64,000 bases of DNA from Blastocatellia bacterium (lineage in GTDB: Bacteria > Acidobacteriota > Blastocatellia > UBA7656), in assembly GCA_963765495.1 (NCBI GenBank), contig CAVXWP010000007.1, positions 512,001 through 576,000 of the forward strand. Reading direction: 5' to 3'. A program made the position numbers and the translations under genes. Numbering within the stretch: the first letter of the stretch is position 1; the number at the start of each line of letters is the position of its first letter. Below the pieces are notes generated by a model. It was not told where the DNA came from, made no database searches, and was given only the letters and a program-made list of their open reading frames with translations. Positions 35,003 through 64,000 of this stretch are shown here, one piece after another.

Positions 35003-38000
35003 ATGAAACCGCATTCACGCTCGCTTTGGATTGCTTTGTTTCTGGTAGCTTTATTTACAATGGTATCGATGGGCGGAGTTGTTCCCGTACGGGTTAGCGC
35101 TCATGGCCCTCAAGGTCAGTCAACCAAACCAGCGCCGCAAAAGGGCGTCGCACCAAAAGAAGATTCCGATGAAGGGGAAGACCCCGACTTGCCCCGTTTC
35201 GCAAACGGCAAGGTGGATAAAGAGGCTTATATGAGGGCCAGACAGGATAATATAAGCCTGATTCGGGGAGTTGATCTGAACGGCAAATTCGATCCGTCCC
35301 TGCGCGTCAAGGCCATACGCCAACTGGAATTGCAGGCAGCGGCAAATGCGCCTGTAATCACCACGGCGGCGTGGACACAGATCGGCCCGGCTCCTATCCC
35401 CAACGGACAGACACAGACGACGACGACCGCCGTGAGCGGGCGCGTCACGGTTGTGGAGATTGATCCGACAAATTCAAGCCGGCTTTATGTAGGCACGGCT
35501 CAAGGCGGCGTCTATCGCTCGCTTGACGGCGGCACGACATGGGCTGCGATATTCGACGGCGCTCAATCGCTCGCCATCGGCGCGCTTGCGCTTGTTCCTA
35601 CCGACCCGACCACGCTTTATGTAGGCACGGGCGAAGCAAACGGCTCGTGCGACAGCTTTGCCGGTGTCGGGTTGTATCGCATAGATACTGTGACGACCAC
35701 TCCTGTGCTTGTAGGCCCGATAAACCCGGTTCGCAACTACAACGATGCCGGGGGCAATCCGCAGAGCGTACCCGCTTTCAACGGGCGCAGCATAAGCAAA
35801 ATACTTGTAAACCCGACCGATCCCGGCTCGCTTCTTGTCGGGACCGCTGGCGGAGTCATAGGAATCGGTTGCGACTCACCGCTCGGCGGCGCGGTTCCGC
35901 CTCTTTCAACGAGAGGGCTTTATCGGCTGGCGAATGCGGACGGCGACCCCGCAGGAGTAACGGTTGAGAAGATACCTGTTGCCACGACCGCGGTTGCGGG
36001 CGGATGTTTCGATCTTCCCTGCACGGCAAATCGCAGCGTAAACGATATGGTCTATGATCCGGCGGACACCAATATCCTGACGCTGTGGCTGAACGGAATA
36101 AACGTATCGGGTGACGGAGGCATATGGCGTTCGACAAACGCGCAGTCCGCCTCTCCGACCTTCACGCAGGTCTTTACCACGACGGCCACAAGCACCTCGA
36201 ACGGCAGAGGGGTCTTTGCCATTTACAAGCAGGGCGCAAACCCTACGGTCATTTATGAAGGAAGCGGGGAAGCAAGCACGGGCGGAACGCTCTGCAACAG
36301 TTCCGCAAACCAGGGGGCGCTCAGAAGATCGACCGACGGCGGCGCTACGTGGTCTGCAAAGCTTCCGGGCGGCGGCGGTTTCTGCGGCGGGCAATGTTTC
36401 TATAATCTCGGCCTCGCGGTAGTTCCCGGCGCGACCACCGCTACGGATACGGTTTATGTGGCAGGAAACGTGCAGAGCGCAAACTGCGCGAAGCTGCTGG
36501 GGAAATCGCTTGACGGCGCTGCGACCGTTTTTGCCAATCTCGATAACGGTCTGCACGCCGATACCCATGTGGTTAAGATCGATCCCAACAACTCTTCGGT
36601 TATCTATCACGGCAATGACGGCGGGATATACAAATCAACAAACGCCGCAGCTTCGTGGACCAGCCTCAACAACACAGGCTTTCACGCCACGCAGTTTCAG
36701 AGCATAGCCACGCATCCTACTGATCAGTTTTATACCATCGGCGGCACGCAGGATAACGGGACGGAATTTCTACAGCCGACCAATATCTGGACGCGCGCCG
36801 ATGCCGGGGACGGCGGCTTTGCCATGATAGATCAGAACGCGGTCAATACGACCAATGTGACGATGTATCACACCTACTTCAATCAGGCCGGAACTCAGAT
36901 AGGCTATGCCCGCGCTACGACAGCGGGCGGAGCCTGGTCGTTTCTCGGCTGCTCAGGGTCGGGAACCACAAGAGGCATCAGTTGCACAAACACGGTGAAT
37001 TTCTATGCGCCGACGGCTCTTGGGCCGGGAAGCCCGAACGTAGTCTATCTCGGCACCGACCGCCTCTATCGCTCTACCGATACGGGCAACAACAACACAA
37101 TAGTCAGCCAGGCGCCGCTTGTGAGCGGCGTGCCCATAAGCAGCATAGCCATTTCGCCGTTGAGCGACCTTGTGCGCGTAGTGGGTCTCAACGACGGCTC
37201 GCTTTTTTACACGACTACCGGGTCATCTACGCTGACAAATTTAGACCCGTCAAACATGATCCCGAATAAATATGTGGGGCGAATAAAAGTCGATCCGAAT
37301 AACAGCAACACGGTTTATATCGCGCTCGCTGGCTACACGGGCGCTACTACGCCGGACAACTCGCATGTGTGGAAGGTGACAAACCTGAGCACGACCCCTG
37401 TGATAACCGCGATCAACGGATCGGGACCTGACGCCCTGCCCGATGTTCCTGTGAACGGCTTTGTGGTTGACCCGGTCAACTCGAACGTGCTCTATGCCGG
37501 GACCGACATAGGTGTTTACAGATCAACGGACGCGGGGGCCAACTGGATGCCGTTTGGCACGGGGCTTCCGATAGTCGCTGTTTTCGATATGGAAATAGCG
37601 CAGAAGGGGACCACCTCTGAAATCCTGCGAATCGCAACGCACGGTCGCGGAATGTGGGAGATTTCGCTTGCCCCGACGCTTGCCAAAGTAGTCGATATAA
37701 ATGCCAGCCGCTTTGATGACGGGCGCGTGCTCGTAGAGTGGCAGACCGGCAGCGAGGTGAACAACCTCGGCTTCAATATTTATCGCGAGCAGGACGGCCA
37801 GCGCATTCGCGTGACTCCGCAACTCGTCGCAGGCGCGGCGCTCGTAACAGGTGCGGGAAGGTCACTGCTTTCAGGCCATACATATCAGTGGGCGGATATC
37901 CCGCCCGCAAATGCCAGAAAGGTGAGCTACTGGCTTGAAGACGTAGACCTCAACGGCCAGAGTTCGTGGACCGGGCCTATTGAGATAAAGCTCGCTCACG

Positions 38001-40159
38001 GCAAGAAATCCGACATAGATCTCAGGTCGGTGACGTTGGGCAGCCTCGGTATGCATCAGGCGCAGGTGACGGGCGGGGTCGGAACCGAGATAGCAGAGCG
38101 AGCGGCGGAAGTTCGAACGCTCACCCCGGCAGCTCAGGCTTCTCAGACCGCGATTGCTTCCGCCCCAGCCGTAAAGATCGGTGTGAAGCAGGAGGGCTGG
38201 TACAGGGTTAGTATGGCCGAACTCCTCGCGGCGGGGCTCAACCCGAATGCCGATCCTCGCAATCTGAAGGTTTTTGTAGACGGTCAGGAAATCCCAATCG
38301 TAGTCAAGAACGCGCCGTCCGGCTCGCCCGATGCGGTTGAATTTTACGCAGTAGGTCTGGATTCCGTCTCATCCAATATCCGCACCTACTGGGTAGTGGC
38401 GACAGATACCCCGGGGCTGAGGATCAGTCCTCAATCGGGCAAGGCCGGGACAATTACGGCGGGAAGCTTCCCCTACACCGTTCAAAGAAAGGATCGGACC
38501 ATATACTTTTCGGCGCTAAAAAACGGCGAGAAAGAGAATTTCTTTGGCCCGGTCGTTTCATCATCACCAATAGACCAGACGCTCACGCTCACGCATGTAG
38601 CTCAATCCGACGCTTCGGCCACGCTCGAAGTAGCTATGCAGGGCGTGACCCGACTGGCGCACGCGGTTACGATAACGCTCAACGGTGAGGCTGTGGGAAC
38701 GCTGAATTTTGCCGGGCAGGCTGCCGGGGTTGCCCGCCTCTCGATTCCGCAATCGAAACTGAAGGAAGGAAGCAACATCGTTCGGTTGACGGGCGGAAGT
38801 TCCGGCCAGGACGTGAGCCTCATCGATTCGATCAGCATCACCTATCAGCACAGCTATATCGCCGATAGCGATGCGCTTCAGCTCACGGCTGAGGCCGGTC
38901 GCCAGATTACTATAGACGGGTTCACGAGCGCATCGGTACGGGTCGTGGATGCCACCAACCCCGATTCCGTTCAGGAACTGGCCGCAACGGTCAAATCCGG
39001 CAAGTCGGGATTTTCCGTCACGGCCACTGCTCAAGGGTCGGGGGATCGCACTCTTCTGGCCTTTGGCGATTCGCAGGTAAGGCATCCGGTCTCGATTGTT
39101 TACAACCAGCCCTCGAACTGGCGGCAGTCAACTACAAGCGCTGACCTGATTATCATCACACGTCAGGATTTCATGACGAGCGTGCAGCCGCTTGTCAGCG
39201 CAAGACAGAATCAGGGGCTTTCTGTGGCTGTCGTCGATGTCGAGGACATCTATGATGAATTCAGCTTTGGCCATAAATCGCCGCAGGCGCTCAAGGATTT
39301 CATACTCTACGCGAGAAATTCCTGGGCAACGCCCGCTCGTTTTGCGCTGCTTGTCGGCGACGGCAGCTTCGATCCGAAGGACTATCTCGGCTATGGAAAT
39401 GCGGACCTCGTGCCGAGCAAACTCATAGACTCTCAGTTTGTAGAGACTGCCTCCGACGACTGGTATGCCGACTCAAACGAAGACGGTCTGGCGGAAATAG
39501 CCGTGGGACGTCTGCCGGTTCGCACCGCTCAGGAGGCCGCCGTTATGATTTCAAAGATCGTAGCCTTTGACCGCCAGGGAGTCACAAATTCGGTGTTGCT
39601 GGTCTCCGACAGCAACGACGGCTATAACTTTGAAGCCGCCAGCGCGCAGGTTCGAGGCATCATACCCGCCGGGATCAATGTGGAGCAGATTGACAGAGGG
39701 CAGGTGGGAACCCTTACGGCAAAGAGCCAGTTGATCGACGCAATAGCGCGAGGACAGAAGATAGTCAATTACACGGGGCACGGAAACGCGACCATTTGGA
39801 GAGATAATCTTCTGACGGCAGCAGACGCCAGAAAGCTGACCAACCGCACCCATCTGCCGCTGTTTGTTACGATGTCGTGTTTGAACGGGTATTATCAAGA
39901 CCCGGTGCTCGACTCGCTGGCCGAATCGCTGATGAAGGCCGAACGCGGCGGAGCCGTTGCCGTGTGGGCTTCATCGGGACTGACCGAGCCAAGCGGTCAG
40001 GTGGTTATGGATCGTCAGGTATTTCAGTTTATCCTGAACTCCACCGGCTCAGGGATGCGTCTGGGAGAAGCCGTTCTTGGAGCGAAGGCTTCCGTATATG
40101 ACGGCGATCTTCGCCGTACGTGGATACTTTTCGGCGACCCGACGATGAGGCTAAGATAA
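35003..40159 (+). CDS. Secreted BNR/Asp-box beta-propeller passenger + Ig-like + C25 peptidase domain protein (C25-1)
   Basis: Signal peptide; repeated RSxDGGxTW Asp boxes, GGTQDNG, ATHGRG; C-terminal IYDEFSFG, GRLP, YTGHG, MSCLNG, LFGDP. Confidence 0.9.
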   Translation: MKPHSRSLWIALFLVALFTMVSMGGVVPVRVSAHGPQGQSTKPAPQKGVAPKEDSDEGEDPDLPRFANGKVDKEAYMRARQDNISLIRGVDLNGKFDPSLRVKAIRQLELQAAANAPVITTAAWTQIGPAPIPNGQTQTTTTAVSGRVTVVEIDPTNSSRLYVGTAQGGVYRSLDGGTTWAAIFDGAQSLAIGALALVPTDPTTLYVGTGEANGSCDSFAGVGLYRIDTVTTTPVLVGPINPVRNYNDAGGNPQSVPAFNGRSISKILVNPTDPGSLLVGTAGGVIGIGCDSPLGGAVPPLSTRGLYRLANADGDPAGVTVEKIPVATTAVAGGCFDLPCTANRSVNDMVYDPADTNILTLWLNGINVSGDGGIWRSTNAQSASPTFTQVFTTTATSTSNGRGVFAIYKQGANPTVIYEGSGEASTGGTLCNSSANQGALRRSTDGGATWSAKLPGGGGFCGGQCFYNLGLAVVPGATTATDTVYVAGNVQSANCAKLLGKSLDGAATVFANLDNGLHADTHVVKIDPNNSSVIYHGNDGGIYKSTNAAASWTSLNNTGFHATQFQSIATHPTDQFYTIGGTQDNGTEFLQPTNIWTRADAGDGGFAMIDQNAVNTTNVTMYHTYFNQAGTQIGYARATTAGGAWSFLGCSGSGTTRGISCTNTVNFYAPTALGPGSPNVVYLGTDRLYRSTDTGNNNTIVSQAPLVSGVPISSIAISPLSDLVRVVGLNDGSLFYTTTGSSTLTNLDPSNMIPNKYVGRIKVDPNNSNTVYIALAGYTGATTPDNSHVWKVTNLSTTPVITAINGSGPDALPDVPVNGFVVDPVNSNVLYAGTDIGVYRSTDAGANWMPFGTGLPIVAVFDMEIAQKGTTSEILRIATHGRGMWEISLAPTLAKVVDINASRFDDGRVLVEWQTGSEVNNLGFNIYREQDGQRIRVTPQLVAGAALVTGAGRSLLSGHTYQWADIPPANARKVSYWLEDVDLNGQSSWTGPIEIKLAHGKKSDIDLRSVTLGSLGMHQAQVTGGVGTEIAERAAEVRTLTPAAQASQTAIASAPAVKIGVKQEGWYRVSMAELLAAGLNPNADPRNLKVFVDGQEIPIVVKNAPSGSPDAVEFYAVGLDSVSSNIRTYWVVATDTPGLRISPQSGKAGTITAGSFPYTVQRKDRTIYFSALKNGEKENFFGPVVSSSPIDQTLTLTHVAQSDASATLEVAMQGVTRLAHAVTITLNGEAVGTLNFAGQAAGVARLSIPQSKLKEGSNIVRLTGGSSGQDVSLIDSISITYQHSYIADSDALQLTAEAGRQITIDGFTSASVRVVDATNPDSVQELAATVKSGKSGFSVTATAQGSGDRTLLAFGDSQVRHPVSIVYNQPSNWRQSTTSADLIIITRQDFMTSVQPLVSARQNQGLSVAVVDVEDIYDEFSFGHKSPQALKDFILYARNSWATPARFALLVGDGSFDPKDYLGYGNADLVPSKLIDSQFVETASDDWYADSNEDGLAEIAVGRLPVRTAQEAAVMISKIVAFDRQGVTNSVLLVSDSNDGYNFEAASAQVRGIIPAGINVEQIDRGQVGTLTAKSQLIDAIARGQKIVNYTGHGNATIWRDNLLTAADARKLTNRTHLPLFVTMSCLNGYYQDPVLDSLAESLMKAERGGAVAVWASSGLTEPSGQVVMDRQVFQFILNSTGSGMRLGEAVLGAKASVYDGDLRRTWILFGDPTMRLR

Positions 40160-40771: not shown

Positions 40772-43700
40772 ATGAAGATATCAAAGAAGAATTTGACACT
40801 GAAAAAATCGAGTGGACGGCTGATCGTCGCCACAACATTGATGTTTTTCTTATCAGTCATATTTTATCCAGTGACGCAGGGCCAGAATGGGTCGCAGGGC
40901 CAGAATGTAATCGAGCGCGCAACTGCGACGCTTGATGGGTCCGCGCTTGAAAGTGGAAAGAAGGCCCAGGCCTCAAGGGGACTGGGTGAAAGCGGCGCTA
41001 AAGGCTCGGGGGTCTCCGGCTCCGGCTCCGGCTCAGCCACTAAGCAGTCTCCAAACGTGGGCGAAGTTGCCAGTAATTACACCTTTGCCACAAATACCAC
41101 CGCGTCGCTTACCGATATGAGCACCGGCACAACTCAATTGCTCGGGCCAAACATTGACGACACCGCTTCGGCGCTCACCAATATCGGGTTTGACTTCTAT
41201 TTTCAGGGGGCGCGCTTCAGCCAGTTCTCGATCAATGAGAACGGCGTGTTTCGTCTAGGCGCAACCGCGCAGAGTTCTACTCCCTACAAGCCGCTTGCGC
41301 AGGCCGGTATTCCGATCATCACCGCTTACGGCGCAGACCAGCGGACGCACGCCGGAGACGGCAAAGTGCATTTCAAGGTGACCGGCTCGGCCCCGAACCG
41401 CGTGCTGACGGTTGAATGGCTCAACAACCAGGCCAATTTCAACACGGGCGGGACGGCAGACCTCACCTATCAGGTCAGACTCTATGAAACGACCGGCGTG
41501 ATCGAACTCGTCTACGGCAGCATGACGATGAGCGCTGCCGGGGCGGCCGATGCCAATTCAAGAGACCCGAACATCGGGTTTTCTTCGAGCAACACGGTCG
41601 GGACGGTCGGCTCTGTGACCGCCGCGCAAAGCGGCACACCCGCGCCGACATTCGACGGGACATCGGCCACAGCGGTGGCGAATCTTTATACGGCTGGCGC
41701 GATCACGGTGCTTACCTCTGCTACTAACGGCTCAAGGCGGATTTTTAGTTTCACGCCACCGACACCGACCGCGCCGACCGGCTTAAATTTCACCGGCGTC
41801 GCCCCGACCGCGATGATGCTCAACTGGACGGATTCACCAAATGAAACCATCTATGCCATATACCGCTCAACCGATGGCACAAACTTCACCTTCGACGGCA
41901 CGGCGGCACAGAACGCGACCTCATACGCGGCGTCGGGTTTGAATCCCAGCACGACTTATTTCTGGCGCGTGTTTGCCGTATCCGAAGGCGCGTTGAGCAC
42001 GGCGCTATCGGGCAGCCAGATGACATCGCCTGCCGGAATCGTTATGTCAACGGCTGCCGGCGGCAATTGGAGCAACCCGGCGACGTGGGTCGGGGGCAGC
42101 GTTCCTATCGCCAGCGACAATGTGACGATAGTTGACGGCGCGACCGTAACGATTGACACGGCGGCCGTAGCTTTGAACGTCACCGTAGGGCAGGGATCAT
42201 CCGGCATCTTGCAGTACGAGACTACGACGGCCCGCACGCTCACCGTTGGGCAGTCAGTGGTGGTATCGGCAGGAGGCACTTTCCAATCAGCCGCGACCGG
42301 CACCGTTACCACGCACGTTCTTTCGGTCGGAACGGATTTGACAAACAACGGCAATATTGATTTCAGCACCAACAGCAACACGGCGGGCGCGGGCATCACC
42401 TTTACCGGCGCAAACGACGCATCCTTTACCCTCGGCGCTGCCAGCACTACCGACTTCAAACAGACCGCTGGCGTCACCTTAAATAAGGGAACCAACAACA
42501 CGCCGGTTCTGACCTTCCTGCCCGGCGGCACAGTCACCGTATTGGGCGCTAATGCGGTCGGTTTCCTCACTATCACAAACGGCACGTTCAAGCTGTCGGG
42601 TGCCAATACATTCAGTAACCCGGTCTTTAACGCGGCGGCTTATTCGATTCCCGCGACGGGCGGATTCTGGATGAACAATGCCAACGCCACCGTCGTCGGG
42701 CTGAACGGCACGTCCACCCTTACGGGTATGTTCAGAATGTCGCAAGGCACGTTCAACATAGGCATCGCCACAGGCAACTCGATGGGCTTTGCTACGGGCA
42801 GTAACATTCTTGTGGAAGGGGGCGCAATAAACGCCACAGGCCGATTCGCCGTGTCGGCTTCAACCAGTGTCATTACCTACAATCAATCCGGCGGTACGAT
42901 CACTGTTTGCACCATCGGTAATGCCTCGACCACTCTCGCCAATTTCGACCTGGGAACCGCCATCGGGTCTACCGTTAACATAACCGGCGGCACGATCATC
43001 GTTCAACTCGCGAACACGGGAGGGTCCGGCCCGCGCGATTATCGCCATCAAGCCGGTACGACCGGGATTTTGAGCGTGACGGCGGGGACATTGCAACTGG
43101 GCAATGCCGCGTCAGGCGCAGCAAAGGCGTTCAACATCGCCGGTGTGCTTCCGAACCTTGTACTGAATAATGCCTCGGCCAATCATTCGGCGACCTTCCT
43201 GGCCCCGGTAGCCTTCAACAACATCTCGCTCGACATCACAATCAACACGGGCAATACGCTGAACATCGGCAACAATGTGTTTCTGATGAACGGGGCTACG
43301 TTAACCAATAATGGAACCTTGACCGCGAACGGAGCGAGTTCCAATTTTGTCTGGTTTCTGACGACGGCTCCGCAGATGTATACCGGCAGCGGCACGGTCA
43401 CAGCGCCGGTGACCAATTTCGCCATACAGTCAGACATGGGGCTGACCATTGACCCGGCCTCGTCCAACATCGTGGTCGGCGCAATCCGATTGTTCAGCGG
43501 CAATCTGATCAATTCCAACAAGATCACGCTAGGCAACGGCGGCGCTACCACAGGCATAGTGCAAATCGGCAATACGACTACGCCGACCGCAGCCGGAACT
43601 TTCGATGTGCCGTTTACCTTCAACCTCGGCACGGGCGGCGAAACGGTATCCTACTTGAGGACGACCTTGACCAGGACTACAGGGCCGGAGATCAATCCGA

Positions 43701-54708: not shown

Positions 54709-55188
54709 ATGAAGAATACAGATCAAGTTTTACCGCTCGCTCGGAAGGACGGACTGGTTGTTCAAGAGTTACCTGATGAAGTATTAATCTATGATTTAGA
54801 TCGACATAAAGCTCATTGCCTCAATCCAACTGCTGCTCTTGTCTGGAATCATTGCGACGGCCAGATGACTATGACCGAGATGATAGGTATCCTGAAGGAA
54901 GAAACACACTCTCCAATAGATGAGGATGTGGTGTGGCTGGCTCTTGATCAATTAGCCAAAACCCATCTGTTATCTGAGCAGGTAATCCGGCCTACAGGAA
55001 GCGGGAAACTCAATCGAAGAGACGTGATGCGACGCATAGGCTGGGCAGCGGCAGTGGCACTTCCACTGGTCACAAGCATCGTCGCCCCATCTGCGGTTCA
55101 GGCCGTGACCTGTAGAGCACCCGGACAACCCTGCACTACAGGCGTGCAATGCTGTTCAGGTGTGTGCAACACTACAACGTGCGCGTAG
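54709..55188 (+). CDS. PqqD/RRE domain fused to a twin-arginine signal and a 6-Cys peptide (putative RiPP precursor)
   Basis: VVQELPDEVLIYD...HCLNPTAALVWNHCDG...ALDQL (PqqD pattern); NRRDVMRR + hydrophobic stretch + AVQA; VTCRAPGQPCTTGVQCCSGVCNTTTCA. Confidence 0.88.
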   Translation: MKNTDQVLPLARKDGLVVQELPDEVLIYDLDRHKAHCLNPTAALVWNHCDGQMTMTEMIGILKEETHSPIDEDVVWLALDQLAKTHLLSEQVIRPTGSGKLNRRDVMRRIGWAAAVALPLVTSIVAPSAVQAVTCRAPGQPCTTGVQCCSGVCNTTTCA

Positions 55189-55257
55189 TCCGAATACGCC
55201 GTCTATCAACTGACATTATCGGCTGCTGCCTCTATCGGTGAGTGAAGGTCTATCTTC

Positions 55258-56328
55258 ATGGTCGAGGCCGACGCAGATAATTCACTTGGAGAACAGGTTT
55301 CAGCCGTCCTTACTGGAGCCTGGCGTTGTGATCCTCCTGTTCCCGACTTTTCAGTTCGAGAATTGAGTGAAGTCGCTCCCCTGCTTTTAGGGTCCGGGGG
55401 AGCGGCTTTGGGCTGGTGGCGAGTTCGCCTATCTCATCTTAAAGACTCTCCTGCGGCGCTGGAACTGCAACACGCCTATCGCATTCATACGTTGAATTCC
55501 TTTGTGCACGAACGGGCGATAAAAGAGGTTTTCGCGCTCTTGCGCTCGGCGGGGATCGAGCCTGTGCTCGTTAAAGGCTGGGCGATTGCCCGCCTCTATC
55601 CTGAAAAATGTCTCCGCCCTTACGGAGACCTCGACCTTTGCTTTCGGCCCGAACAATACGAGCAGGCTTCGGATGTGCTGGAGAGTCCCGAGGGCAGGCA
55701 TTACAACGTAGACGCGCACGAAGGGTTTGCCAAACTCGACGATTACAGCGTAGACGAATTGTACAGTCGTTCCGAGTTGATAGCTCTGGATAACATCGAA
55801 GTGCGCGTGTTGGGGCCTGAAGATCATCTTCGCATTCTGTGCGTGCACCTGCTCAGGCATGGGGCGTTTCGGCCTTCGTGGTTGTGCGACATCGCGGTGG
55901 CGCTCGAAAATCGACCCGCCGACTTCGATTGGAATCGATGTCTTGGAAAAGAGACCCGAAAGGCCGGCTGGGTTGTCTCATCGCTCGCTCTTGCCCATAG
56001 ATTACTGGGCGCGAGAGTGGATGATACTCCGGCAGCGGGCGCAAGCGCGCGGCTTCCGTCCTGGCTGGTTGCGCACGTCCTCAAGCAATGGGAAGCCCCC
56101 TATCCGGCGCTCTACCCGCCGATGAGTTATTATCCCCCGTTGATTACTTACTTCCGTCATCCGGCTGGATTTCTGAAGGCTCTTCGCAAGCGATGGCCCG
56201 ACCCGCTTGAGGCTACGATAAGATTGGAAAGACCGATAGATGAAGCCCCGCGGCTCCCTTATCAGATAGGTTATTGTCTCTTGCGATTAAAGAACTTTCT
56301 GGCGAGCCTGCTGAAATCATCCGAATGA
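55258..56328 (+). CDS. Nucleotidyltransferase family protein (NTP_transf_5-like)
   Basis: GIEPVLVKGWAIARLYP...RPYGDLDL, VDAH, LGPEDHL..LCVH, WLCDIA. Confidence 0.88.
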   Translation: MVEADADNSLGEQVSAVLTGAWRCDPPVPDFSVRELSEVAPLLLGSGGAALGWWRVRLSHLKDSPAALELQHAYRIHTLNSFVHERAIKEVFALLRSAGIEPVLVKGWAIARLYPEKCLRPYGDLDLCFRPEQYEQASDVLESPEGRHYNVDAHEGFAKLDDYSVDELYSRSELIALDNIEVRVLGPEDHLRILCVHLLRHGAFRPSWLCDIAVALENRPADFDWNRCLGKETRKAGWVVSSLALAHRLLGARVDDTPAAGASARLPSWLVAHVLKQWEAPYPALYPPMSYYPPLITYFRHPAGFLKALRKRWPDPLEATIRLERPIDEAPRLPYQIGYCLLRLKNFLASLLKSSE

Positions 56329-56441
56329 TGCGTAAAGAGTGAAGAGTGATGCGTGCCTTTCAGGCAATCAACTGTTAACCATCTCATCGCTGACTTCATA
56401 AATCACGAATCACGTATCGCTCCTCACTCTTTACATTTCAT

Positions 56442-57758
56442 CTAATCTGCCGCGCTTGCCTTCTCCGTGATTATTGATGTCGATTCGAACAGAAGCGACT
56501 GCAAGAGGAGCGAATCGTGGAAGGATGAGTATATATCCTCAAACTCATCCTGCAACTGAGTGGCATATTCTGCCGGATATGATCTTTCGACCTCCTGTTT
56601 TATCTGCTCAATCGAAAGACCCCGCAAAAGGCACCGGAGTATGAACAAACAATCCTCATCGAAGTAGTCCATACCGAGTATATTTGGCTCTGCCGATCCC
56701 AGCACTTTCGTGGTTGAAAACTCCATCACCCAATCGGCAACCGTGTCGACAGAATCCTTTTCGGGAAAGCGTTGCTTGACCAGATCGAGGATCATCTCTC
56801 TTTGCGGCACGTTCAGCAGCAACGCCATAAAGAATCGGTGGTCGCTTTCGGTCAAATAGGCCCTTCGTCTCGACATATTTAACTGTCTCTGGAGTTCGGC
56901 AAAGACCCGGGGAACAATATCCATCAACTGCCCATGCTTGAGGCGGGCCTTTTCGAGCAGCTTATTGAAGCGTTCTCTGCCGGTCGAAAGCTGAAATATG
57001 CGTTCCATCTCGTCGGAGGTCAGGTGTTGAAATGCCGTATAGAGTATCGAAAAAGAGGTGTGAAAATCTGAGTGAGCGATCATCTCACTGATCATGGAAT
57101 CGGCGTCCTGATGCTTCATCCTGAGGAGCAGGGCGGCGCTCTGAACCTTCTTTGTGGATGAGATTTCAGCAAAGAAAGGATTCGAGGCAATATAAGGTTT
57201 CAGATATTCAAACTGCGGCAACACGCCGGGGGTTTGATAGGTTCTGATTGTGATAGTCGTCGATGGTCTGTCAAGATGAAACAGCGAGTGTATGTAGCGG
57301 TCGCCGGGCAATATCTTTCTGATCTGGCCCTTCTTCAGCAACTCGACCTCCTTAAAAACAGTCTGCCCGACCTGAAGATGAGAGTTTATCTCAACCTCCC
57401 GGTTGAATCCGTACTGGCTGTGGATGCTCGACCCGGAGAGCACCTGAAAGGCCCCTGAAAAGGCGTGCTGATGGATGCTTGTGGTTCCATCGAGCCAGTA
57501 ATAGATATCTATATAAAACCGTGGTCCGCTATAGAGCGTGATCGGGGGGTCGCCGAAACGGGCGTCAATGTCTTGCTGCGGAGGAATCTGTATGGCTTTG
57601 CCAAGCCACTCGATTATGTTCCAGGGGTCGACCTGCTCGCTCGGATTGGTTTCGGCGAGCGCCTGCGCAGCAATGTCGGGGAATATATCTTCGTTATAAT
57701 TTTTGTCTCTCCATCGCTGTTCTACAAGCGATCCGAGTCTCTGAAAAAAGTCCATCAT
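56442..57758 (-). CDS. Cupin-fold (cysteine-dioxygenase-like) metalloprotein with helical C-terminal domain
   Basis: YYWLDGTTSIHQHAFSGAFQVLSG ... YIHSLFH; GGAGG RBS. Confidence 0.7.
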   Translation of the reverse strand: MMDFFQRLGSLVEQRWRDKNYNEDIFPDIAAQALAETNPSEQVDPWNIIEWLGKAIQIPPQQDIDARFGDPPITLYSGPRFYIDIYYWLDGTTSIHQHAFSGAFQVLSGSSIHSQYGFNREVEINSHLQVGQTVFKEVELLKKGQIRKILPGDRYIHSLFHLDRPSTTITIRTYQTPGVLPQFEYLKPYIASNPFFAEISSTKKVQSAALLLRMKHQDADSMISEMIAHSDFHTSFSILYTAFQHLTSDEMERIFQLSTGRERFNKLLEKARLKHGQLMDIVPRVFAELQRQLNMSRRRAYLTESDHRFFMALLLNVPQREMILDLVKQRFPEKDSVDTVADWVMEFSTTKVLGSAEPNILGMDYFDEDCLFILRCLLRGLSIEQIKQEVERSYPAEYATQLQDEFEDIYSSFHDSLLLQSLLFESTSIITEKASAAD

Positions 57759-57856
57759 CCTACCTCCAGAAGTTCCTTTGGCTGAGGAAGAATATCTCTA
57801 ATCTCGATTGCTGGCAACAAGGCGATGAGTATTGGCCGGGCGATTTTTTTATGGTA

Positions 57857-57886
57857 TTGACAATTGGGAAATGCCCACATTATGCT
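57857..57886 (+). promoter_or_regulatory. Sigma70-type promoter for the polysaccharide operon
   Basis: TTGACA-18 nt-TATGCT. Confidence 0.55.
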
Positions 57887-58295
57887 TTTTCGCGCTTTAG
57901 GTTTCCGAACAAGATGAGGTCGCCAGGAGCGATCAGGGGTGCAGATAAGATCAAAGCTTTTGGAGAAGTATTGTTCGTCTCACCTTAGGAAGCGCGCGCG
58001 GAGAAATCCAGGAAAATTGAAGAGAATGGAGACTCGCAGATTGTGCTTGTCTGTCGAGCGTCCTTGATGATTCCAGAATTTGCTCGTAACATCTCAGCAT
58101 CAAACTCCCCCTTAAGAACTCATAAGGATGCTGTTTTGACAAACTGAATTGCCGTCGTGTCGGCTTCCCTCGCGGGCTTACCTTTCAAAGGGCGTAGCCT
58201 GCTCAAAACGCCGCAATACGAAGGGTAATTTTCGACTGCCCCCAGGCCCGGCCCATTCGATCAATGATCAGGTTCCTCAGGAAATCGTAATACTA

Positions 58296-59582
58296 ATGAC
58301 CCTGGAAATATCTCTAAAAAAGGCGACAGCCAGGATTGCCCTGATGGGGGCCGCCGCCGCTTTGTTTTGTCTGCTTTCCGTATTGATAATTTCCAATTTC
58401 ATTACGGGAATAATGGCCGACGAGCGTATCAAGGTGAATCGCGGGCTTCTGGCCTCGACAATCATATATTTTCCGAATTCGGCCCGTTTGCAGGCCCGGC
58501 TTGCGCAGGTTGAGCTGGCGGAGCCTGACCGCGATCTTTCCGTAGCCGAAGCTCACGCCCGGCGTGCAATCGCGCTTTTGCCGGATAATTACAAGCCCCG
58601 GCTTTTACTTGCTTCAATCGAAGAATTGAAGGGGGATCGCGACTCCGCCGAGCTCTCCTTGCGCGAGGCGGTTCGGCTCGCACCACACAATCGAGAGGTC
58701 CACTACCGACTGGCTAATCTGCTGCTGAGAGAAGGCAAACTTGACGAATCGGTTGAAGAGTTTCGCCTGACGACCGAAGCCAATCCCTCTCTTCTTCCCG
58801 CGACGCTCGATCTCGTATGGCGGGCCACGGGTGGCGATACGGAAGCGGTGAAAAAGATCGCGGGCACAGATGTGAAAGCGAGGCTCGCGCTCGCTCAATT
58901 TCTCGTCAATCAATCGCGCGCAGATGACGCGGCAACGGTTTTCGACGGCCTCGACCGCTCGACGCAGATGGATGCGCCAGAGACCGCTCCTTTCCTCAAT
59001 TCGCTCATCGCAAAGGGGGAGGGAGGGGTTGCGCGAAGGATTTGGGGTGAATTGCTGGGAGGCAGCCGCACAGGCGCGCTCGTTTCAAACGGCGGATTTG
59101 AAGACGACATCCTCAAGAACTTCGATCAATTCGACTGGGCTATTTCGCGCAGCGAATACGCACGCATTCTTATAGACACTCGCCTGGCGCACGGCGGGAC
59201 GCGTTCGCTTAAGATAGATTTCACAGGCCGGGATACGACCCGACTCGATAACGAGATTCGCCAGCTTGTAATGGTCAACGCGGGAGTCCGATACAGATTG
59301 GAGTGCTACGCAAGAACAGAGGAGCTTGTCACGCCCGAAGGACCGCGCGTGGTTGTGACAGACAAGTCGAACAACTGGCTGGCCTCTTCCGCGCCCCTTG
59401 CTTCGGGGACGAGCGACTGGCAGCGAATCGCGATTGAGTTTGCCGCTCCATCAGGCGACATAGGGGATAAACCCGGCGGGCAGATGGTTTACATCTCGAT
59501 CAAACGAAAGCCTGAATTCAGCTATGACGATCCTACACGGGGAAGCGTCTGGTTTGACGATTTCTTAATCAGTAGGCAGTAG
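58296..59582 (+). CDS. Membrane-anchored TPR + carbohydrate-binding (CBM4/9-like) protein
   Basis: N-terminal TM, TPRs (AVRLAPHN...YRLANLLLREG), LVSNGGFE...VWFDDF. Confidence 0.8.
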   Translation: MTLEISLKKATARIALMGAAAALFCLLSVLIISNFITGIMADERIKVNRGLLASTIIYFPNSARLQARLAQVELAEPDRDLSVAEAHARRAIALLPDNYKPRLLLASIEELKGDRDSAELSLREAVRLAPHNREVHYRLANLLLREGKLDESVEEFRLTTEANPSLLPATLDLVWRATGGDTEAVKKIAGTDVKARLALAQFLVNQSRADDAATVFDGLDRSTQMDAPETAPFLNSLIAKGEGGVARRIWGELLGGSRTGALVSNGGFEDDILKNFDQFDWAISRSEYARILIDTRLAHGGTRSLKIDFTGRDTTRLDNEIRQLVMVNAGVRYRLECYARTEELVTPEGPRVVVTDKSNNWLASSAPLASGTSDWQRIAIEFAAPSGDIGDKPGGQMVYISIKRKPEFSYDDPTRGSVWFDDFLISRQ

Positions 59583-59705
59583 GCAGTAGGCAGTTATAGG
59601 AATCGGGTACCAACTACTCATATTCATATCCGGCTTCTACCTCTATCTGATCCGGTTTAACTTGATTTACCGCTTTATAACTGCCTACTGCCTACTGCCT
59701 ACTGC
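59570..59705. repeat. Inverted heptamer arrays (AGGCAGT)n ... (ACTGCCT)n
   Basis: Arrays at 59570-59594 and 59680-59705. Confidence 0.88.
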
Positions 59706-59722
59706 TTATAGCGGCTCTGATT

Positions 59723-60910
59723 GTGATCGGCCTTGCGCAGAGCGTGGCATTTACGGACGGCGACGGCCGCAGGGTGAGCCTCTCGATGAATGTAGATGCT
59801 ACTCGCCCGGCGGTGATGGTGATGTTTTTTCTGCTGGTTTCGTTTATAATTGCTCGGAACTTTGTTGCTACACGCGAGCGGGTAGGTTCACTGGCCAGCT
59901 TCCTCGTATTCTACGGACTGGCCATGTCGGTATTTGCGCTGATTCAACATTTTGCCTGGGATGGTCGGTTCTATTGGTTGAGGCCGACCGATCAGGGAAC
60001 GGTATTCGGACCGTTTGTCAATCGCAATCACTATGCCGGCTACATAGAGATGCTGGCCCCGATTCCGGTTGCGCTCATAATCACTCGCGGCGTGAGCCGG
60101 GAATCGTGGGCGCTCTACGGTTTTGCAGCCGCGATCATGGGTATATCGGTGATTGTTACCCTCTCGCGAGGAGGCACAATCAGCCTAATCTCAGGAATGG
60201 TGTTTCTGGCGATTGCGAGCGCCCGGCTCAATAAAAGGAACGAAGGTAAAACAGTGACGGACGCAAAAGCGCCTGCAAAACGGCACTTTTCATCCTTCAA
60301 GCGCGTCGGGGTTGTTGCTTTCATCAGTATTGCGGTCCTTGCGGGCGTGATCTGGATAGGAGCCGAAGCGGTTCTGAATCGCGCGGTCGAGACTCTGAAT
60401 ACGGTTCGGAAAAGCGAAACTCAGATCCTGAGCCGCACAGGGATTTGGAAAGATACGTGGGCGATGATTCGCGCCAATCCGGTTATGGGAGTAGGTATCG
60501 GCGCTTACGAAGCAGTTTACCCTATGTATGGTCGCGGCGACGGCACTATGATAGTAGATTATGCGCACAATGATTATTTGCAGGTGCTCTCGGATACGGG
60601 CATCATTGGCGGATTTGTCGCGCTCTGTTTCCTCGGGCTGATCTTTCGCGCGATCAGGCGAGGGGCTGAAAATAATGATCCTCTTCTGAGAGGAGCAGCG
60701 CTTGGCGGCGGCGCGTCCATTTTTTCGATCCTCGTTCATAGTTTATTTGACTTCAATCTGCAAATACCATCTAATGCTTTGCTGTTTCTGGTTCTTGCTG
60801 CCGTGGTCTCGTCAGTCGGCGCGCTTGAAGGCGCGAGCGAACTGACGAAGGCGGGGCAGCCGGCTGTCGCGATTGATACGACCGGCCTTCATACAGGAGT
60901 ACGATCATGA
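59723..60910 (+). CDS. O-antigen ligase/Wzy_C family membrane protein (5' end unclear)
   Basis: GPFVNRNHYAGY, TLSRGG, RTGIW, PVMGVGIG, AHNDYLQ, HSLFDFNL. Confidence 0.88.
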   Translation: MIGLAQSVAFTDGDGRRVSLSMNVDATRPAVMVMFFLLVSFIIARNFVATRERVGSLASFLVFYGLAMSVFALIQHFAWDGRFYWLRPTDQGTVFGPFVNRNHYAGYIEMLAPIPVALIITRGVSRESWALYGFAAAIMGISVIVTLSRGGTISLISGMVFLAIASARLNKRNEGKTVTDAKAPAKRHFSSFKRVGVVAFISIAVLAGVIWIGAEAVLNRAVETLNTVRKSETQILSRTGIWKDTWAMIRANPVMGVGIGAYEAVYPMYGRGDGTMIVDYAHNDYLQVLSDTGIIGGFVALCFLGLIFRAIRRGAENNDPLLRGAALGGGASIFSILVHSLFDFNLQIPSNALLFLVLAAVVSSVGALEGASELTKAGQPAVAIDTTGLHTGVRS

Positions 60911-62016
60911 GATTTAGAACTGAAAGAATGCCGACACAAGTTTTCCGGTTATTTGTTTTGTCAGTAATTTTGTTTGCGCCCGCAGGCGGCATATCCTTTT
61001 CTCAACAGCGCGAGCACCCTCAGCAGATGCGGCCCCCGTCTCAGTCGATCACCGATCCCCTGCCTGCGCCAAGCATCCTTGTCTCTCCCGACGAGGATTA
61101 CCGCATAGGCCCGGCCGATGTGATCGAGATACAGATAGAGGATGCGCCGGAGCTTTCTAATACCTGGCGCGTGAGCGCAAACGGCACCGTCTCGATGCCT
61201 TATCTGGATAGCGTGAAGGCGGAAGGCAAGTCGCCCGTGGAGCTTGAGAAATTCATAGCCGACGGATTGCGCGGTCGCTATTTGAAAGACCCGCAGGTCC
61301 ACGTTCTGGTCAAACAGATCAACAGCCGGTCATTTTTTATTCAAGGTTCTGTTCGGCGTCCGGGCGTATATCAGATAGAGGGTCGCCCGTCGCTGCTAAA
61401 GCTCATCACAGTCGCCGGAGGACTGGCCGACAGTCATGGCTCTACCGCTTTCATCATCAGCGAGAAAAAGCCAAAGAGAGACGAAGGCGCAGAAACCGTT
61501 GATGCGGCTCCGGCAAAAGAGATATTGCAGACATCCGGGCAGAGATCCGACGGTAAGATTGAAAATGCTGATGCAGGCGCGGATTATGATCTCAAGACCG
61601 TAAACATCAGCGGGTTGCTCAGAGGCCGTTTCAATCAGAACATGTATCTTGATCCCGGAGATATAGTAAATATCCCGCCGCTCGATGTCTTTTTCGTGGC
61701 GGGCGAAGTAAACGCGCCGGGGTCGTTTCCCCTGAAAGAAGGCACGACCTTGCGGCAGGCGGTCTCTCTGGCTCAAGGCACGACTTTCAATGCTGCCGGA
61801 AGCGAGGGAGTCATCTTCCGCGAAGACCTGGCCACCGGGCAGCGCAACGAAATCAAGGTTGATATCGGCGAAGTTATGAGAGGCAAAAAGGAAGATATAC
61901 AGATACAGGCAAACGATATAATCATAGTCCCAAACAGCCGGTTCAAATCCGTAGGCAACGCATTGCTCAGGGCCTTCGGACTCGGAACGGCTCAACGCGG
62001 GCCTTATCGTTATTGA
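60907..62016 (+). CDS. Polysaccharide export protein (Wza/OPX, SLBB repeats)
   Basis: YRIGPADVIEI, VSANGTVSMPY, YLKDPQV, GSVRRPG, GEVNAPG. Confidence 0.92.
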   Translation: MRFRTERMPTQVFRLFVLSVILFAPAGGISFSQQREHPQQMRPPSQSITDPLPAPSILVSPDEDYRIGPADVIEIQIEDAPELSNTWRVSANGTVSMPYLDSVKAEGKSPVELEKFIADGLRGRYLKDPQVHVLVKQINSRSFFIQGSVRRPGVYQIEGRPSLLKLITVAGGLADSHGSTAFIISEKKPKRDEGAETVDAAPAKEILQTSGQRSDGKIENADAGADYDLKTVNISGLLRGRFNQNMYLDPGDIVNIPPLDVFFVAGEVNAPGSFPLKEGTTLRQAVSLAQGTTFNAAGSEGVIFREDLATGQRNEIKVDIGEVMRGKKEDIQIQANDIIIVPNSRFKSVGNALLRAFGLGTAQRGPYRY

Positions 62017-62120
62017 TGCTTGCGGGACTGTTATTTTCGAGAGCGCGGGCAGAGGTGCGCGCTCTCGTATCCACTTAACACAATCATTTTAGTAATGAGC
62101 GGTCATATCGGAGAACCCCG

Positions 62121-64000
62121 ATGGATAAAGAAAGATTCGAATTAGAAAAGCTCCCAATAGATACGGAACACAAAGAGATAGGCGGGCTGCGCCCGCGCTA
62201 CGCGAGCGCAGGTTATGGTTACGGAAGTAATTACGGCGTGGACGAAGGCAAAATCCATGTGCGCGAACTGTGGCGAACAATCCGCAAGCGCAAATGGATG
62301 ATCCTCACGCTGATCCTCGTCATTACTACGCTTGTAACTATCGAGATGTATCGGACCAGGAATACCTATCAGGCAAGCGCCTTGATAGAGATAGGCAAAG
62401 ACAGCGCCTCGCTTGGAAAGACCGGCAGCCTCTTCGGAGACGATTACGACCCGTATTATATGGTCAATATAAAGACGAAGATGCTCTCGCTACAGAGCCG
62501 GTCATTGATGGAAAGCGTGGTCACAAGTCTCAATCTCGACCAGAACCCGAAATTTCTGGAAGCGGGTCGAAAGAAATCCTTCTGGGGGGGGATAAAATCA
62601 ATAGCCGCCAGAGTGGGTCTCGGAAGCCCGGAAGACAACAAAAATCTTGATGATGAGAAGTTCGACGTTCAATCCGACATGACCGAACAGGAGGCCGAAG
62701 AGAAACGACGCGAAGCCTGCGTCACTATACTTCAGGCAACCTTGAACGTAGAGCCGATTCGCGAGACGAAAGCCATCAGAATTTCATACACGCACGCCGA
62801 CCCTGAGATCGCGCAGGCGGTCACAAACAGCATCGCCGAAAACTTCCTGAACAACAATTTCCAGTCCAAGACCGAGAAATTCACGAGGACGGCCAAGTGG
62901 CTTGACGAACAAACGAACCGCCTCAAGGCTCAGGTCGAAAAGGCCGAACAGGCGCTTGCAAACTACACTCGCGAAAGAGGAATCTTTTCGACCGACGGGA
63001 AAGATGCGACCCTGACTACCGACAAGCTTTCGCGTCTGCACGAGCAGGCTATGCGGGCCGAAACCGACCGCATGCTGAAGCAATCGCTTTACGAAGAGGT
63101 CAAGCAGGGCCGCGTTCAGCAACTCCCCGAAGCCTTCGCCGACATGGTTTACAAATCGTCTCCGAAGATGGCCGAGCTTCAAAGACAACTCGGAGAACTT
63201 GAAGCCAACGCCGCCGAACTCGGCGTAAAGTTTGGTCCCGACAACCCGCAGGTCAGAGAGGTGAAGGGGCGAATAGAGGCCATCAAAGAACAGATAGCTC
63301 AAAACAGCACCTCGCTCGAAGCGAAGGTTCGAAACGATTATGAGCGTGCCTTGCGCGACGAGCAGATGCTTAAAAACGCCCTGACGCAGGCAAAAGGCGA
63401 AGCCATACAGCAGAATCAGGATGCTATTCAATTCAATATTCTGAAGCAGGACGTAGACACGGCTAAGACGCTTTACACGGAATTTCTGGGCAAGACCAGC
63501 CAGGCAAACGCCCAGATAGCCGAGCAGTACAACAACCTGAAGGTGATCGAGCCCGCGCAGTTGCCTCACTCAGCGGTCGGCCCCCGGCGTATGCTCATGA
63601 TTATGGCCAGTTTTATGTTGAGTCTGGCCGTCGGCGTGGGGCTGGCGTTCTTCCTCGAATATCTGGACAACACAATCAAGACGGTCGAAGACGTGAGCCG
63701 CTACACGCAGCTACCCGCCCTGAGCGTAATACCGGCAGCGACCGGAAACGGCATTCGCCGCCTTTCATCCAAAGGGAGAAAGCGGATCGCCACCGCGAAT
63801 CTTGAGAATGCGGGCGGCAACTCTCAACTCGTGGCGCTCGATACCCGATCATCTGCCGCCGAAGCCTATCGCGTATTGCGTACGTCGGTGCTGTTGTCGG
63901 CTGCCGGGCACCCGCCAAAGACCATACTCGTCACAAGCGGGCAGCCGGGCGAGGGCAAGACCACGACCGTAGTCAACACGGCCATCTCGCTTGCGCAACT
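62121..64000 (+). CDS. Polysaccharide co-polymerase/tyrosine autokinase (Wzc/GumC), 3' truncated by window edge
   Basis: Not in the ORF track; read by hand as MDKERFELEK...ELWRTIRKRKW, TM, coiled coil, TM, AEAYRVLRT, Walker A GQPGEGKTT near 63940. Confidence 0.92.
   Translation, partial: MDKERFELEKLPIDTEHKEIGGLRPRYASAGYGYGSNYGVDEGKIHVRELWRTIRKRKWMILTLILVITTLVTIEMYRTRNTYQASALIEIGKDSASLGKTGSLFGDDYDPYYMVNIKTKMLSLQSRSLMESVVTSLNLDQNPKFLEAGRKKSFWGGIKSIAARVGLGSPEDNKNLDDEKFDVQSDMTEQEAEEKRREACVTILQATLNVEPIRETKAIRISYTHADPEIAQAVTNSIAENFLNNNFQSKTEKFTRTAKWLDEQTNRLKAQVEKAEQALANYTRERGIFSTDGKDATLTTDKLSRLHEQAMRAETDRMLKQSLYEEVKQGRVQQLPEAFADMVYKSSPKMAELQRQLGELEANAAELGVKFGPDNPQVREVKGRIEAIKEQIAQNSTSLEAKVRNDYERALRDEQMLKNALTQAKGEAIQQNQDAIQFNILKQDVDTAKTLYTEFLGKTSQANAQIAEQYNNLKVIEPAQLPHSAVGPRRMLMIMASFMLSLAVGVGLAFFLEYLDNTIKTVEDVSRYTQLPALSVIPAATGNGIRRLSSKGRKRIATANLENAGGNSQLVALDTRSSAAEAYRVLRTSVLLSAAGHPPKTILVTSGQPGEGKTTTVVNTAISLAQ

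Follow-up and report, generated by a model that had tools for sequence, protein, structure and literature searches.

Small cassettes encoding a kinase, a recognition element for ribosomally made peptides (RRE) and a nucleotidyltransferase can lie beside polysaccharide loci, and their experimental description dates only from 2026, when the linear polyphosphorylated peptide (LPP) clusters of Bacillota were reported from capsule loci (Popov et al., Nat Commun 2026; PMC13381572). In these clusters, the kinase polyphosphorylates Ser3 of the core peptide and a signal-peptidase-type enzyme cuts the leader, while the transferase was inactive in a heterologous host, where its authors suspect a need for partners encoded by neighbouring polysaccharide genes; biofilm formation is raised as an idea for the role of the product (PMC13381572). 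In kinase-bearing lasso peptide clusters, an HprK homologue places a phosphate on a precursor Ser, and a nucleotidyltransferase is needed for a hexose to be added to that phosphate (PMC8498205). PorU, the type IX sortase of Porphyromonas gingivalis, cleaves the tails of its cargo and joins the cargo to anionic lipopolysaccharide (A-LPS; PMC4560394, PMC8545088). Statements drawn from these four papers and comparisons made with them, here and below, refer to excerpts of their text. Elements that recall all of these systems occur together in a 64,000-nucleotide window of a Blastocatellia bacterium of the Acidobacteriota (G000:C7:512001-576000, in a 7.3-Mb genome of 17 contigs), where, between window positions 35003 and 64000, three giant proteins ending in a Peptidase_C25 domain (C25_1, C25_2, and C25_3) are followed by a peptide-modification cassette and then by genes for a Wzy_C-family ligase, Wza, and Wzc.

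Among known systems, the LPP clusters of Bacillota come closest. Both have a kinase of the HprK type, a lasso-B1-type RRE, a nucleoside triphosphate (NTP) transferase, and a place in a polysaccharide locus, a macrolactam cyclase is lacking in both, and leader removal by signal-peptidase-type cleavage, which is only predicted in the window, may be a further shared feature. The two differ in that the RRE is fused to the precursor in the window and is a discrete protein in LPP clusters, and in that neither the window genes nor the following 20 kb yielded the SpI (SipW-like) peptidase and MsbA-like exporter of the latter. The leader of the window precursor carries LPxVTSI..AP, RR, and AxA, of which only the P-x-V core resembles the LPP motif YxxPxVLxHQxIxFETxxS. 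A six-cysteine knottin-like core, the occurrence in Acidobacteriota, and the coupling to PorU-like giant proteins and Wzy_C ligases also set the window apart.

Recurrence of the three gene blocks

A preliminary description of the window had proposed that the C25 genes, the cassette, and the Wza/Wzc/ligase genes form one envelope superlocus, with C25 in the role of exosortase and a glycan as the anchor. The superlocus itself is conserved in synteny. The surroundings (±20 kb) of 30 kinase loci, selected for spread of genera and length of contigs, were fetched and searched with the window proteins by tblastn; all of these loci belong to one order and 29 to one family, and the relatives are not independent. 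C25 modules adjoin the cassette in 18 of the 30 loci, eight of which have Wza/Wzc too, and the blocks are thus not unlinked in relatives. Polysaccharide genes without C25 occur in five further loci, and neither C25 nor Wza/Wzc in seven, among which G055 has a TPR gene only. With a profile built from six ligases, a Wzy_C ligase was detected in 16 of the 30 loci, including six of the seven without C25 and Wza/Wzc. C25 or the ligase is therefore found in 27 loci, the remaining three have TPR and/or Wza/Wzc, and an envelope partner is present in all 30. The exact gene order of the window recurs in at least six loci (G008, G009, G010a, G026, G050_C49, and G052). Kinase loci of four other genera hold orthologues of the C25_3 passenger; in G048, G022, and G023 the orthologue is the gene just before the kinase, and in G010a, G017_C8, and G018 one further gene intervenes. 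A C25_1 orthologue heads the G047 locus, adjoined there by a homologue (49% identical) of the small protein orf135 of the window.

The same partnership is repeated within the genome itself, where a blastp search with the window proteins recovered three paralogous units of PqqD-type precursor, nucleotidyltransferase, and ligase/Wza/Wzc. The second unit (C1:1215074-1229156) comprises C25, PqqD, nucleotidyltransferase, ligase, Wza, and Wzc, and the third (C2:232336-264556) runs from TPR, ligase, Wza, and Wzc through ~23 kb of glycan genes to kinase, PqqD, and nucleotidyltransferase, with no C25. The kinase stands beside two of the three units (window and C2), C25 is present in two, and the TPR gene is syntenic with ligase/Wza/Wzc in two (window and C2) as well as in relatives. 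Of the 58 order genomes, this one among them, 43 have the kinase, 51 have C25 (1-27 copies), and 46 have a PqqD-type gene; C25 and PqqD occur together in 43, C25 only in eight, PqqD only in three, and neither in four.

Away from the fetched kinase loci, 40 regions around PqqD-type matches, taken in list order, contained 47 PqqD-type genes. In 17 of these, the start lies 8-332 nt after a complete C25 C-terminus encoded by the same strand, and the nucleotidyltransferase often comes next, with no kinase. Over all fetched loci, 38 of 84 PqqD-type open reading frames (ORFs) lie within 1.5 kb downstream of the 3' end of a C25 gene, and by type the share is 23 of 41 for knottin spacing, 12 of 39 for long Cys-rich tails, and three of four for truncated ORFs. 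On these counts, C25 has its tightest coupling with the exported peptide that the PqqD-type genes appear to encode, and not with a glycan alone. Beyond the order, the cassette is kept in the sister family and a small number of other families in the phylum, with a profile match, not always full length, in 28 of 201 sampled genomes. The order C25-then-PqqD recurs outside the class in G114, C25 lies beside the cassette in G188, and Wza/Wzc are near the cassette in G114, G170, G235, and G245. Judged from these gene arrangements, the linkage of the three blocks is more than chance.

The loci without C25 and Wza/Wzc that carry the ligase have precursors with long Cys-rich tails, and five of six such long-tail loci also encode MauE-thioredoxin proteins, fused in four cases and divided into two ORFs in G014. 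These genes (L028:895-2439, L060:922-2481, L019:18371-19918, L042:2027-3610, and L057:11874-13434) have two thioredoxin/AhpC-type domains and a Wzy_C ligase nearby, and their domain content suggests a dedicated periplasmic disulfide-forming system for the exported peptide.

The exosortase role proposed for C25 was not borne out. The cassette co-exists with a full-length exosortase in six sister-family genomes (G165, G188, G218, G236, G245, and G254), always on different contigs, and five of the six also have C25. Across the 201 phylum genomes, C25 is present in 88 and exosortase in 64, totals that include genomes flagged as unpublished (G201 and G080), and a hand count gives C25 in 13 of the 39 genomes that have a strong exosortase match and in 75 of the 162 that do not. 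Complementarity of exosortase and C25 was rejected, as no exclusive pattern was seen in the 201 genomes; together with the co-existence in six genomes, this leaves nothing to indicate a replacement of exosortase by C25. No exosortase was found in the window or in the 20 kb downstream. The only exosortase-like gene of the genome is a weak match (28-32 bits) on another contig (C8:232 kb), directly behind a VIT-VWA gene (G000:C8:230102-232884; L073:6102-8884), and unrelated to the studied locus. A search of the genome for PEP-CTERM cargo (TIGR02595) gave no match, with a short model that matched nothing in the control genomes either. The Wza, Wzc, ligase, and TPR proteins of the window match XrtA-associated NCBIfam models, all below cut-offs, and the Wzy_C ligase matches PEP_O_lig_1 and TfpM weakly. 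A literature search that excluded subscription-only papers and supplements found no paper joining exosortase with HPr kinase or PqqD, and the statement that PEP-CTERM loci couple such genes was thus not confirmed. A glycan link is plausible.

Precursor, giant C25 proteins, and locus layout

The PqqD-type gene appears from its sequence to encode the exported peptide itself, a point that the preliminary description missed. Residues ~16-95 of the product form an RRE fold (AlphaFold2 (AF2) model, pLDDT 82), whose top structural match is the lasso B1 RRE TbiB1 in its leader-bound form (5v1v), followed by other RREs. In the C-terminal stretch after the RRE, NRRDVMRRIGWAAAVALPLVTSIVAPSAVQAVTCRAPGQPCTTGVQCCSGVCNTTTCA, a twin-arginine motif precedes a moderately hydrophobic segment and an AxA site, after which comes the 27-aa core, its Cys spaced as C-x6-C-x5-CC-x3-C-x4-C. 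Among the best 120 of 1483 precursor homologues (E≤1e-5), six Cys lie within the last 32 residues in 118, the spacing is exact in 88, CCS is present in 112, and the RR motif in 107; the homologues, where named at all, are named only as PqqD family proteins, chaperones, or "hypothetical protein." In an alignment of 28 precursors, R103, R104, A132 (the -1 Ala), LP.VTS..AP, the six Cys, and the Ser of CCS are all invariant, and the loops between the Cys of the core vary. Six Cys in a ~30-aa peptide with this spacing are compatible with a knottin; a Toxin_29 match to the precursor is sub-threshold (E 0.0013, 19 vs 25 bits) and PF11703 is precomputed on a few homologues. The features of a twin-arginine translocation (Tat) signal are present (RR, moderately hydrophobic stretch, and AxA), as is TatC in the genome, with the signal-like segment internal, starting at about residue 102 after the RRE and not at the N-terminus. 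The AF2 model has a short strand at leader residues 121-125 (VTSIV), which may resemble an RRE-bound leader. A literature search, which excluded subscription-only papers and supplements, did not find PqqD-fused twin-arginine Cys-rich precursors or bacterial RRE-linked knottins.

The kinase has a GxxxxGKT P-loop and scores 59 bits against TIGR04352, under the cut-off of 200, and the nucleotidyltransferase has a G-x15-DLD motif; PF14907 nucleotidyltransferases adjoin PqqD-type genes in most loci. Sequence searches of the PDB with the kinase and the nucleotidyltransferase returned nothing meaningful. No lasso cyclase or B2 peptidase is present among the window genes by Pfam. A canonical lasso cluster does exist elsewhere in the genome (L074, G000:C1:1260001-1272000), with an Asn-synthase-like cyclase, a transglutaminase-like B2 peptidase, and an HprK-like kinase, and further with a methyltransferase, a PF14907 nucleotidyltransferase, and an ABC exporter; the window cassette is therefore a diverged, cyclase-less relative of that machinery. 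No relic PqqD-type gene was found after C25_1 or C25_2, either by own-genome blastp, which gave three copies, or among the small ORFs of the gaps.

In each of the three giant proteins, the variable passenger is followed by a beta-sandwich of ~105 aa, then by a flexible linker, and then by a PorU-like multidomain C25 module, with Peptidase_C25 (PF01364) at the extreme C-terminus (E 1e-74 to 1e-85). The ~840-aa C-terminal module is shared and the passengers differ. The modules match the NCBIfam model T9SS_sortase (PorU) over ~670 aa (model positions 2-733) at 252-272 bits, under the equivalog cut-off of 420, and an alignment of 29 modules taken from the window and from relatives shows no change at His711 (GHG) or Cys744 (TCLNG motif). 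In the AF2 model of the C25_3 module (pLDDT 85, pTM 0.86), an N-terminal beta-sandwich (~6-105) is followed by a low-confidence linker (130-161), which is probably disordered, by more beta domains, and by the terminal alpha/beta catalytic domain. Its best Foldseek match is latent PorU (6za2; E 2.4e-30, 803 columns), and gingipains align with it over only ~375-400 columns. The middle beta-rich part and the first ~130 aa of the modules gave sub-threshold matches only in a lenient Pfam search. By eye, the N-termini of all three proteins are charged, then hydrophobic, and Sec-signal-like, and no membrane anchor or secretion tail follows the C25 domain. Type IX SprA and cargo-tail models (TIGR04189 and TIGR04183) had no match in the genome, and neither model matched any control genome. 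The genome holds 11 C25 ORFs. The three modules of the window are only 40-47% identical to each other, and assembly duplication as their source was therefore rejected. Within the C25_3 passenger (~50200-51100; aa ~760-1060), two dockerin-like repeats (DxDxNG..D..) followed by a cohesin-like beta region can be read by eye, with no Pfam match at E≤0.01. When the C25_3 module (839 aa) was modelled together with the final 40 residues of the precursor, the predicted complex, run without controls, scored 0.00 and counts neither way. A literature search of the same scope found nothing of substance on C25/PorU in Acidobacteria.

The last ~1.77 kb of C25_3 (51900-53667) is unusual in composition, with a GC skew of +0.35 to +0.76 and cytosine at 9, 15, and 11% of codon positions 1, 2, and 3, compared with 19, 35, and 33% in the rest of the gene. 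Purines occupy 78% of third positions, ~7 standard deviations (SD) over the genome mean of 47% (SD 4.4, 3265 ORFs of ≥300 aa), where the maximum for a whole ORF is 68.6%, and amino-acid use appears by eye to be shifted to purine-rich codons. The bias is seen in only two near-identical paralogues (window 51900-53667 and G000:C1:313094-314861), and orthologous C25 genes in other genomes do not have it. Window 50206-53669 and G000:C1:311400-314863 are 99.5% identical over 3464 nt (18 mismatches), ending at the stop codon, and window 50205-51430 is 93% identical over 1230 nt to a paralogue at G000:C7:408064-414567, which suggests recent gene conversion or duplication among C25 paralogues. DNA relatives of the cytosine-poor segment above ~69% identity over ≥700 nt were not found in the other 57 genomes of the order; shorter ones have 70-81%.

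The features of the locus, called from an ORF listing and from Pfam/NCBIfam scans of the window proteins, are collected in Table 1. As the preliminary description stated, nearly all genes are co-oriented (10 of 12 on the plus strand, with only orf438 and orf135 on the minus strand), 116 nt separate the C25_3 stop from the kinase start, and the polysaccharide export and ligase genes lie downstream of the cassette, in the order TPR, Wzy_C ligase, Wza, and Wzc.

Table 1. Genes and sequence features of the locus, with positions in the window
Feature	Position	Strand	Description
C25_1	35003-40159	+	1718 aa; signal peptide, BNR/sortilin-like propeller passenger, PorU-like C25 module 37667-40156
C25_2	40772-46825	+	2017 aa; signal peptide, FN3-containing passenger, PorU-like C25 module 44297-46822
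orf135	46960-47367	-	small protein; hydrophobic signal-like N-terminus; no Pfam/NCBIfam family
C25_3	47920-53667	+	1915 aa; signal peptide, PPC/CarboxypepD_reg passenger, PorU-like C25 module 51148-53664
C25_3 catalytic codons	His 53278-53280, Cys 53377-53379	+	His/Cys dyad of the PorU-like C25 module
HprK-related P-loop kinase	53784-54608	+	274 aa; predicted cytoplasmic; TIGR04352 E 2.8e-16
PqqD-type tripartite precursor	54709-55188	+	159 aa; RRE/PqqD domain 54709-54993
Precursor leader, twin-arginine-type signal-like, AxA end	55012-55104	+	sequence reading and alignment
Precursor core, 27 aa, six-cysteine knottin-like	55105-55185	+	sequence reading and alignment
NTP_transf_5 (PF14907) nucleotidyltransferase	55258-56328	+	356 aa; predicted cytoplasmic; Pfam E 2.6e-28
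orf438	56442-57758	-	conserved accessory protein; no Pfam/NCBIfam family
TPR protein	58149-59582	+	weak CBM-like C-terminal part; PrsT-like match below cut-off
Wzy_C family ligase	59723-60910	+	O-antigen ligase or O-oligosaccharyltransferase-type; Pfam E 3.3e-24
Wza-type outer-membrane polysaccharide export protein	60907-62016	+	Pfam/NCBIfam
Wzc-type chain-length/tyrosine-kinase co-polymerase	62121->64000	+	crosses window end; full protein 800 aa in genome

Polysaccharide genes run on for at least 18 kb past the window, and the 20 kb downstream contains a flippase, eight glycosyltransferase-type genes, a methyltransferase, a Wzy-like polymerase fragment, DUF362, and a heparinase-like gene; the parts of a Wzx/Wzy-dependent pathway (Wza, Wzc, flippase, Wzy-type polymerase/ligase, and glycosyltransferases) are thus all present. 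Upstream of 35003 lie unrelated housekeeping genes (amidase, kinases, peptidases, LpxB, BamD, and others). The accessory gene orf438 adjoins the cassette in at least eight fetched loci (G017_C7, G024, G032, G042, G055, and L122-L124); an Atlas search for its family gave only unnamed acidobacterial and verrucomicrobial clusters, and its N-terminal half has, by eye, His-rich motifs recalling a metal-binding cupin. Rfam at gathering thresholds gave no match in 33000-64000. A consensus scan of 46700-64000 found 12 promoter-like sites (11.6 expected) and 23 terminator-like sites (16.5 expected, SD 4.8), both uninformative on operon limits, and no RNA sequencing run covering window 52500-58500 is listed, only one soil DNA run, which may be the source sample. 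Elsewhere in the window, an AT skew of +0.22 with no GC skew extends over the Wzc gene (62001-64000), a TIR-domain protein with TPR repeats is encoded at 26724-27353 (minus strand), and a KaiC-like double ATPase lies beside a response regulator and a GAF/His-kinase hybrid at 4045-5920 (minus strand).

Candidate mechanism and rival explanations

The cassette recurs with C25 alone, with ligase or polysaccharide genes alone, and with both, and it can therefore be regarded as the hub of the locus. Most simply, the C25 and polysaccharide blocks would both have an exported, modified Cys-rich peptide as their partner, and we tentatively favour, as a real possibility, a conserved multi-operon locus for the cell envelope or matrix, in which a lasso/LPP-type tailoring cassette is the hub and its peptide an adaptor. 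We infer each step beyond gene and domain content. The N-terminal domain of the precursor would hold its own leader, with the conserved LPxV.. segment, for the kinase and nucleotidyltransferase, which would add phosphate and then a sugar or nucleotide to a core Ser/Thr, as their homologues do on paeninodin, pseudomycoidin, and LPP. The signal-like segment would carry the C-terminal core through the inner membrane, a signal-peptidase-type cut after AxA would release the 27-aa peptide, and three disulfides would form in the periplasm. There, the peptide could serve as an adaptor to which a Wzy_C-type ligase joins a lipid-linked glycan, or which the ligase extends, while the PorU-like modules of the neighbouring giants would recognise or process it, so that protein, peptide, and polysaccharide may end in one surface or matrix assembly.

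Several observations weigh against this account. Eight of the 58 order genomes have C25 without a PqqD-type match, one of them with seven copies, and in the phylum C25 occurs in 88 of 201 genomes compared with a PqqD-type match in 28. In this genome, seven of the 11 C25 genes are not beside the cassette. Among the 84 PqqD-type ORFs, 46 have no C25 within 1.5 kb upstream, many groups of C25, PqqD, and nucleotidyltransferase have no nearby kinase, and 14 of the 30 kinase loci have no ligase within the fetched span. The relatives are not independent, and the counts therefore overstate the number of separate events. As for the peptide, its assignment as a knottin follows from Cys spacing and sub-threshold Pfam matches, a signal peptide after a folded domain of ~100 aa is unusual, and the segment may be only an RRE-binding leader. 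A fixed Ser/Thr near the cleavage site, like Ser3 of LPP, is absent from the 28 aligned sequences, in which the Ser of CCS is the only invariant hydroxyl of the core.

Knottins are classic protease inhibitors, and secreted proteases can be paired in operons with small inhibitors. The knottin might accordingly be a factor dedicated to the latency of, or immunity to, the PorU-like C25 proteins in the periplasm, with the polysaccharide genes as merely co-regulated neighbours. An inhibitor would fit the gene order, in which the small exported protein comes after the protease (8-332 nt away in 17 of 47 cases), the several knottin paralogues that each follow a particular C25 gene (G010a, G017_C8, and G018), and the variable loops between conserved Cys. 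We nevertheless hold this to be unlikely, as it leaves the recognition domain, kinase, and nucleotidyltransferase unexplained, together with the C25-less cassettes that have the ligase (nine loci) or TPR/Wza/Wzc (three) and the C2 locus of the same genome; most C25 genes moreover have no such neighbour (for example, G050 has 24 C25 and five PqqD-type genes).

The peptide could also be a stand-alone product of LPP type, with a role in signalling, antimicrobial activity, or the matrix, which shares a surface island with the C25 and polysaccharide genes and has no molecular contact with them beyond, at most, trimming by C25 outside the cell. Bacillota LPP and paeninodin clusters lie in capsule loci without a known molecular link and are up-regulated with a neighbouring polysaccharide gene (PMC13381572), this genome has the separate lasso cluster L074 with its own kinase and nucleotidyltransferase, and the cassette is without C25 in 12 of the 30 loci. 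The tight same-strand spacing of C25 and PqqD, seen again in different genera and in a further family of the phylum, and the presence of the Wzy_C ligase even in minimal cassette loci are more specific than a shared island predicts, however, and make this explanation rather improbable.

The adaptor account has a stronger, covalent form for surface anchoring, which we regard as quite improbable, in which the giants would cut themselves in the flexible linker by means of the PorU-like module and pass the passenger, without type IX secretion, to the free N-terminus of the exported knottin; the kinase and nucleotidyltransferase would have phospho-glycosylated this peptide, and the Wzy_C ligase would have attached it to the polysaccharide.

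The model of the preliminary description, in which C25 as an exosortase stand-in fixes the passengers to polysaccharide and the cassette modifies another substrate, draws on the PorU fold of the whole module, PorU being a transpeptidase that joins cargo to glycolipid (PMC4560394, PMC8545088), on C25 proteins that end without an anchor or secretion tail of their own, and on polysaccharide genes that resemble XrtA-associated sets, at scores below the cut-offs. It is very unlikely in view of the missing replacement pattern, with exosortase and cassette together in six genomes, five of them with C25; in addition, the substrate of the cassette can be seen in the PqqD gene itself, and C25 arrays with the cassette have no polysaccharide genes within 20 kb in G017_C8, G018, G023, and G034. 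Inherited gene order with no functional link is scarcely credible, for although shared ancestry in 30 loci of one order (29 of one family) gives some synteny, the kinase is only 50-66% identical across the fetched loci, gene number, order, and strand vary around constant partners, the unit is triplicated within the genome, and the partnership recurs in other arrangements in another family of the phylum (G114, G188, and G170).

Comparison with other known systems and significance

The window shares with the paeninodin and pseudomycoidin clusters the kinase, nucleotidyltransferase, and B1-type RRE proteins, from which the chemistry expected for the window is taken by analogy, and differs from them in having no lasso cyclase or B2 peptidase. 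With PEP-CTERM/exosortase systems it has in common the idea of protein sorting beside Wza/Wzc/ligase genes, with the difference that no exosortase stands at the locus and that all scores to XrtA-associated models are under the cut-offs. The Wzy_C family includes protein O-oligosaccharyltransferases of the PglL/PilO/TfpM type. Like these, the Wzy_C enzyme of the window is encoded beside a small exported Ser/Thr-rich peptide, and the peptide is therefore a plausible acceptor of a lipid-linked glycan; unlike them, the window gene may simply encode the ligase or polymerase of the polysaccharide pathway.

The locus can be viewed as the diderm version, in abundant soil bacteria, of the cassettes described from Bacillota. 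Its substrate can be read from sequence, being fused to its own recognition domain and ending in a conserved knottin-like peptide, and the cassette is repeatedly and tightly coupled both to PorU-like proteases, with up to 27 copies per genome, and to Wzy_C ligases. This gives such peptides candidate roles in linking or regulating surface proteins and polysaccharide, and points to a shared role of the proteases, the peptide kit, and the polysaccharide operon in building the cell surface or a biofilm matrix. If the peptide is a bacterial knottin carrying a phospho-sugar, it would be a new natural-product scaffold.

The C25 proteins of the window share with PorU the whole ~840-aa multidomain fold and the His/Cys dyad. 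They differ from it in that the module is the terminal part of giant proteins and not a stand-alone enzyme, in having no C-terminal sorting domain, in their copy number (11 in this genome and 1-27 across the order), and in scores under the equivalog cut-off. If the giants do pass their passengers to the glycan-joined peptide, the resulting covalent chain of protein, peptide, and glycan, linked through a ribosomal peptide, would correspond in acidobacteria to PorU/A-LPS anchoring and to exosortase sorting.

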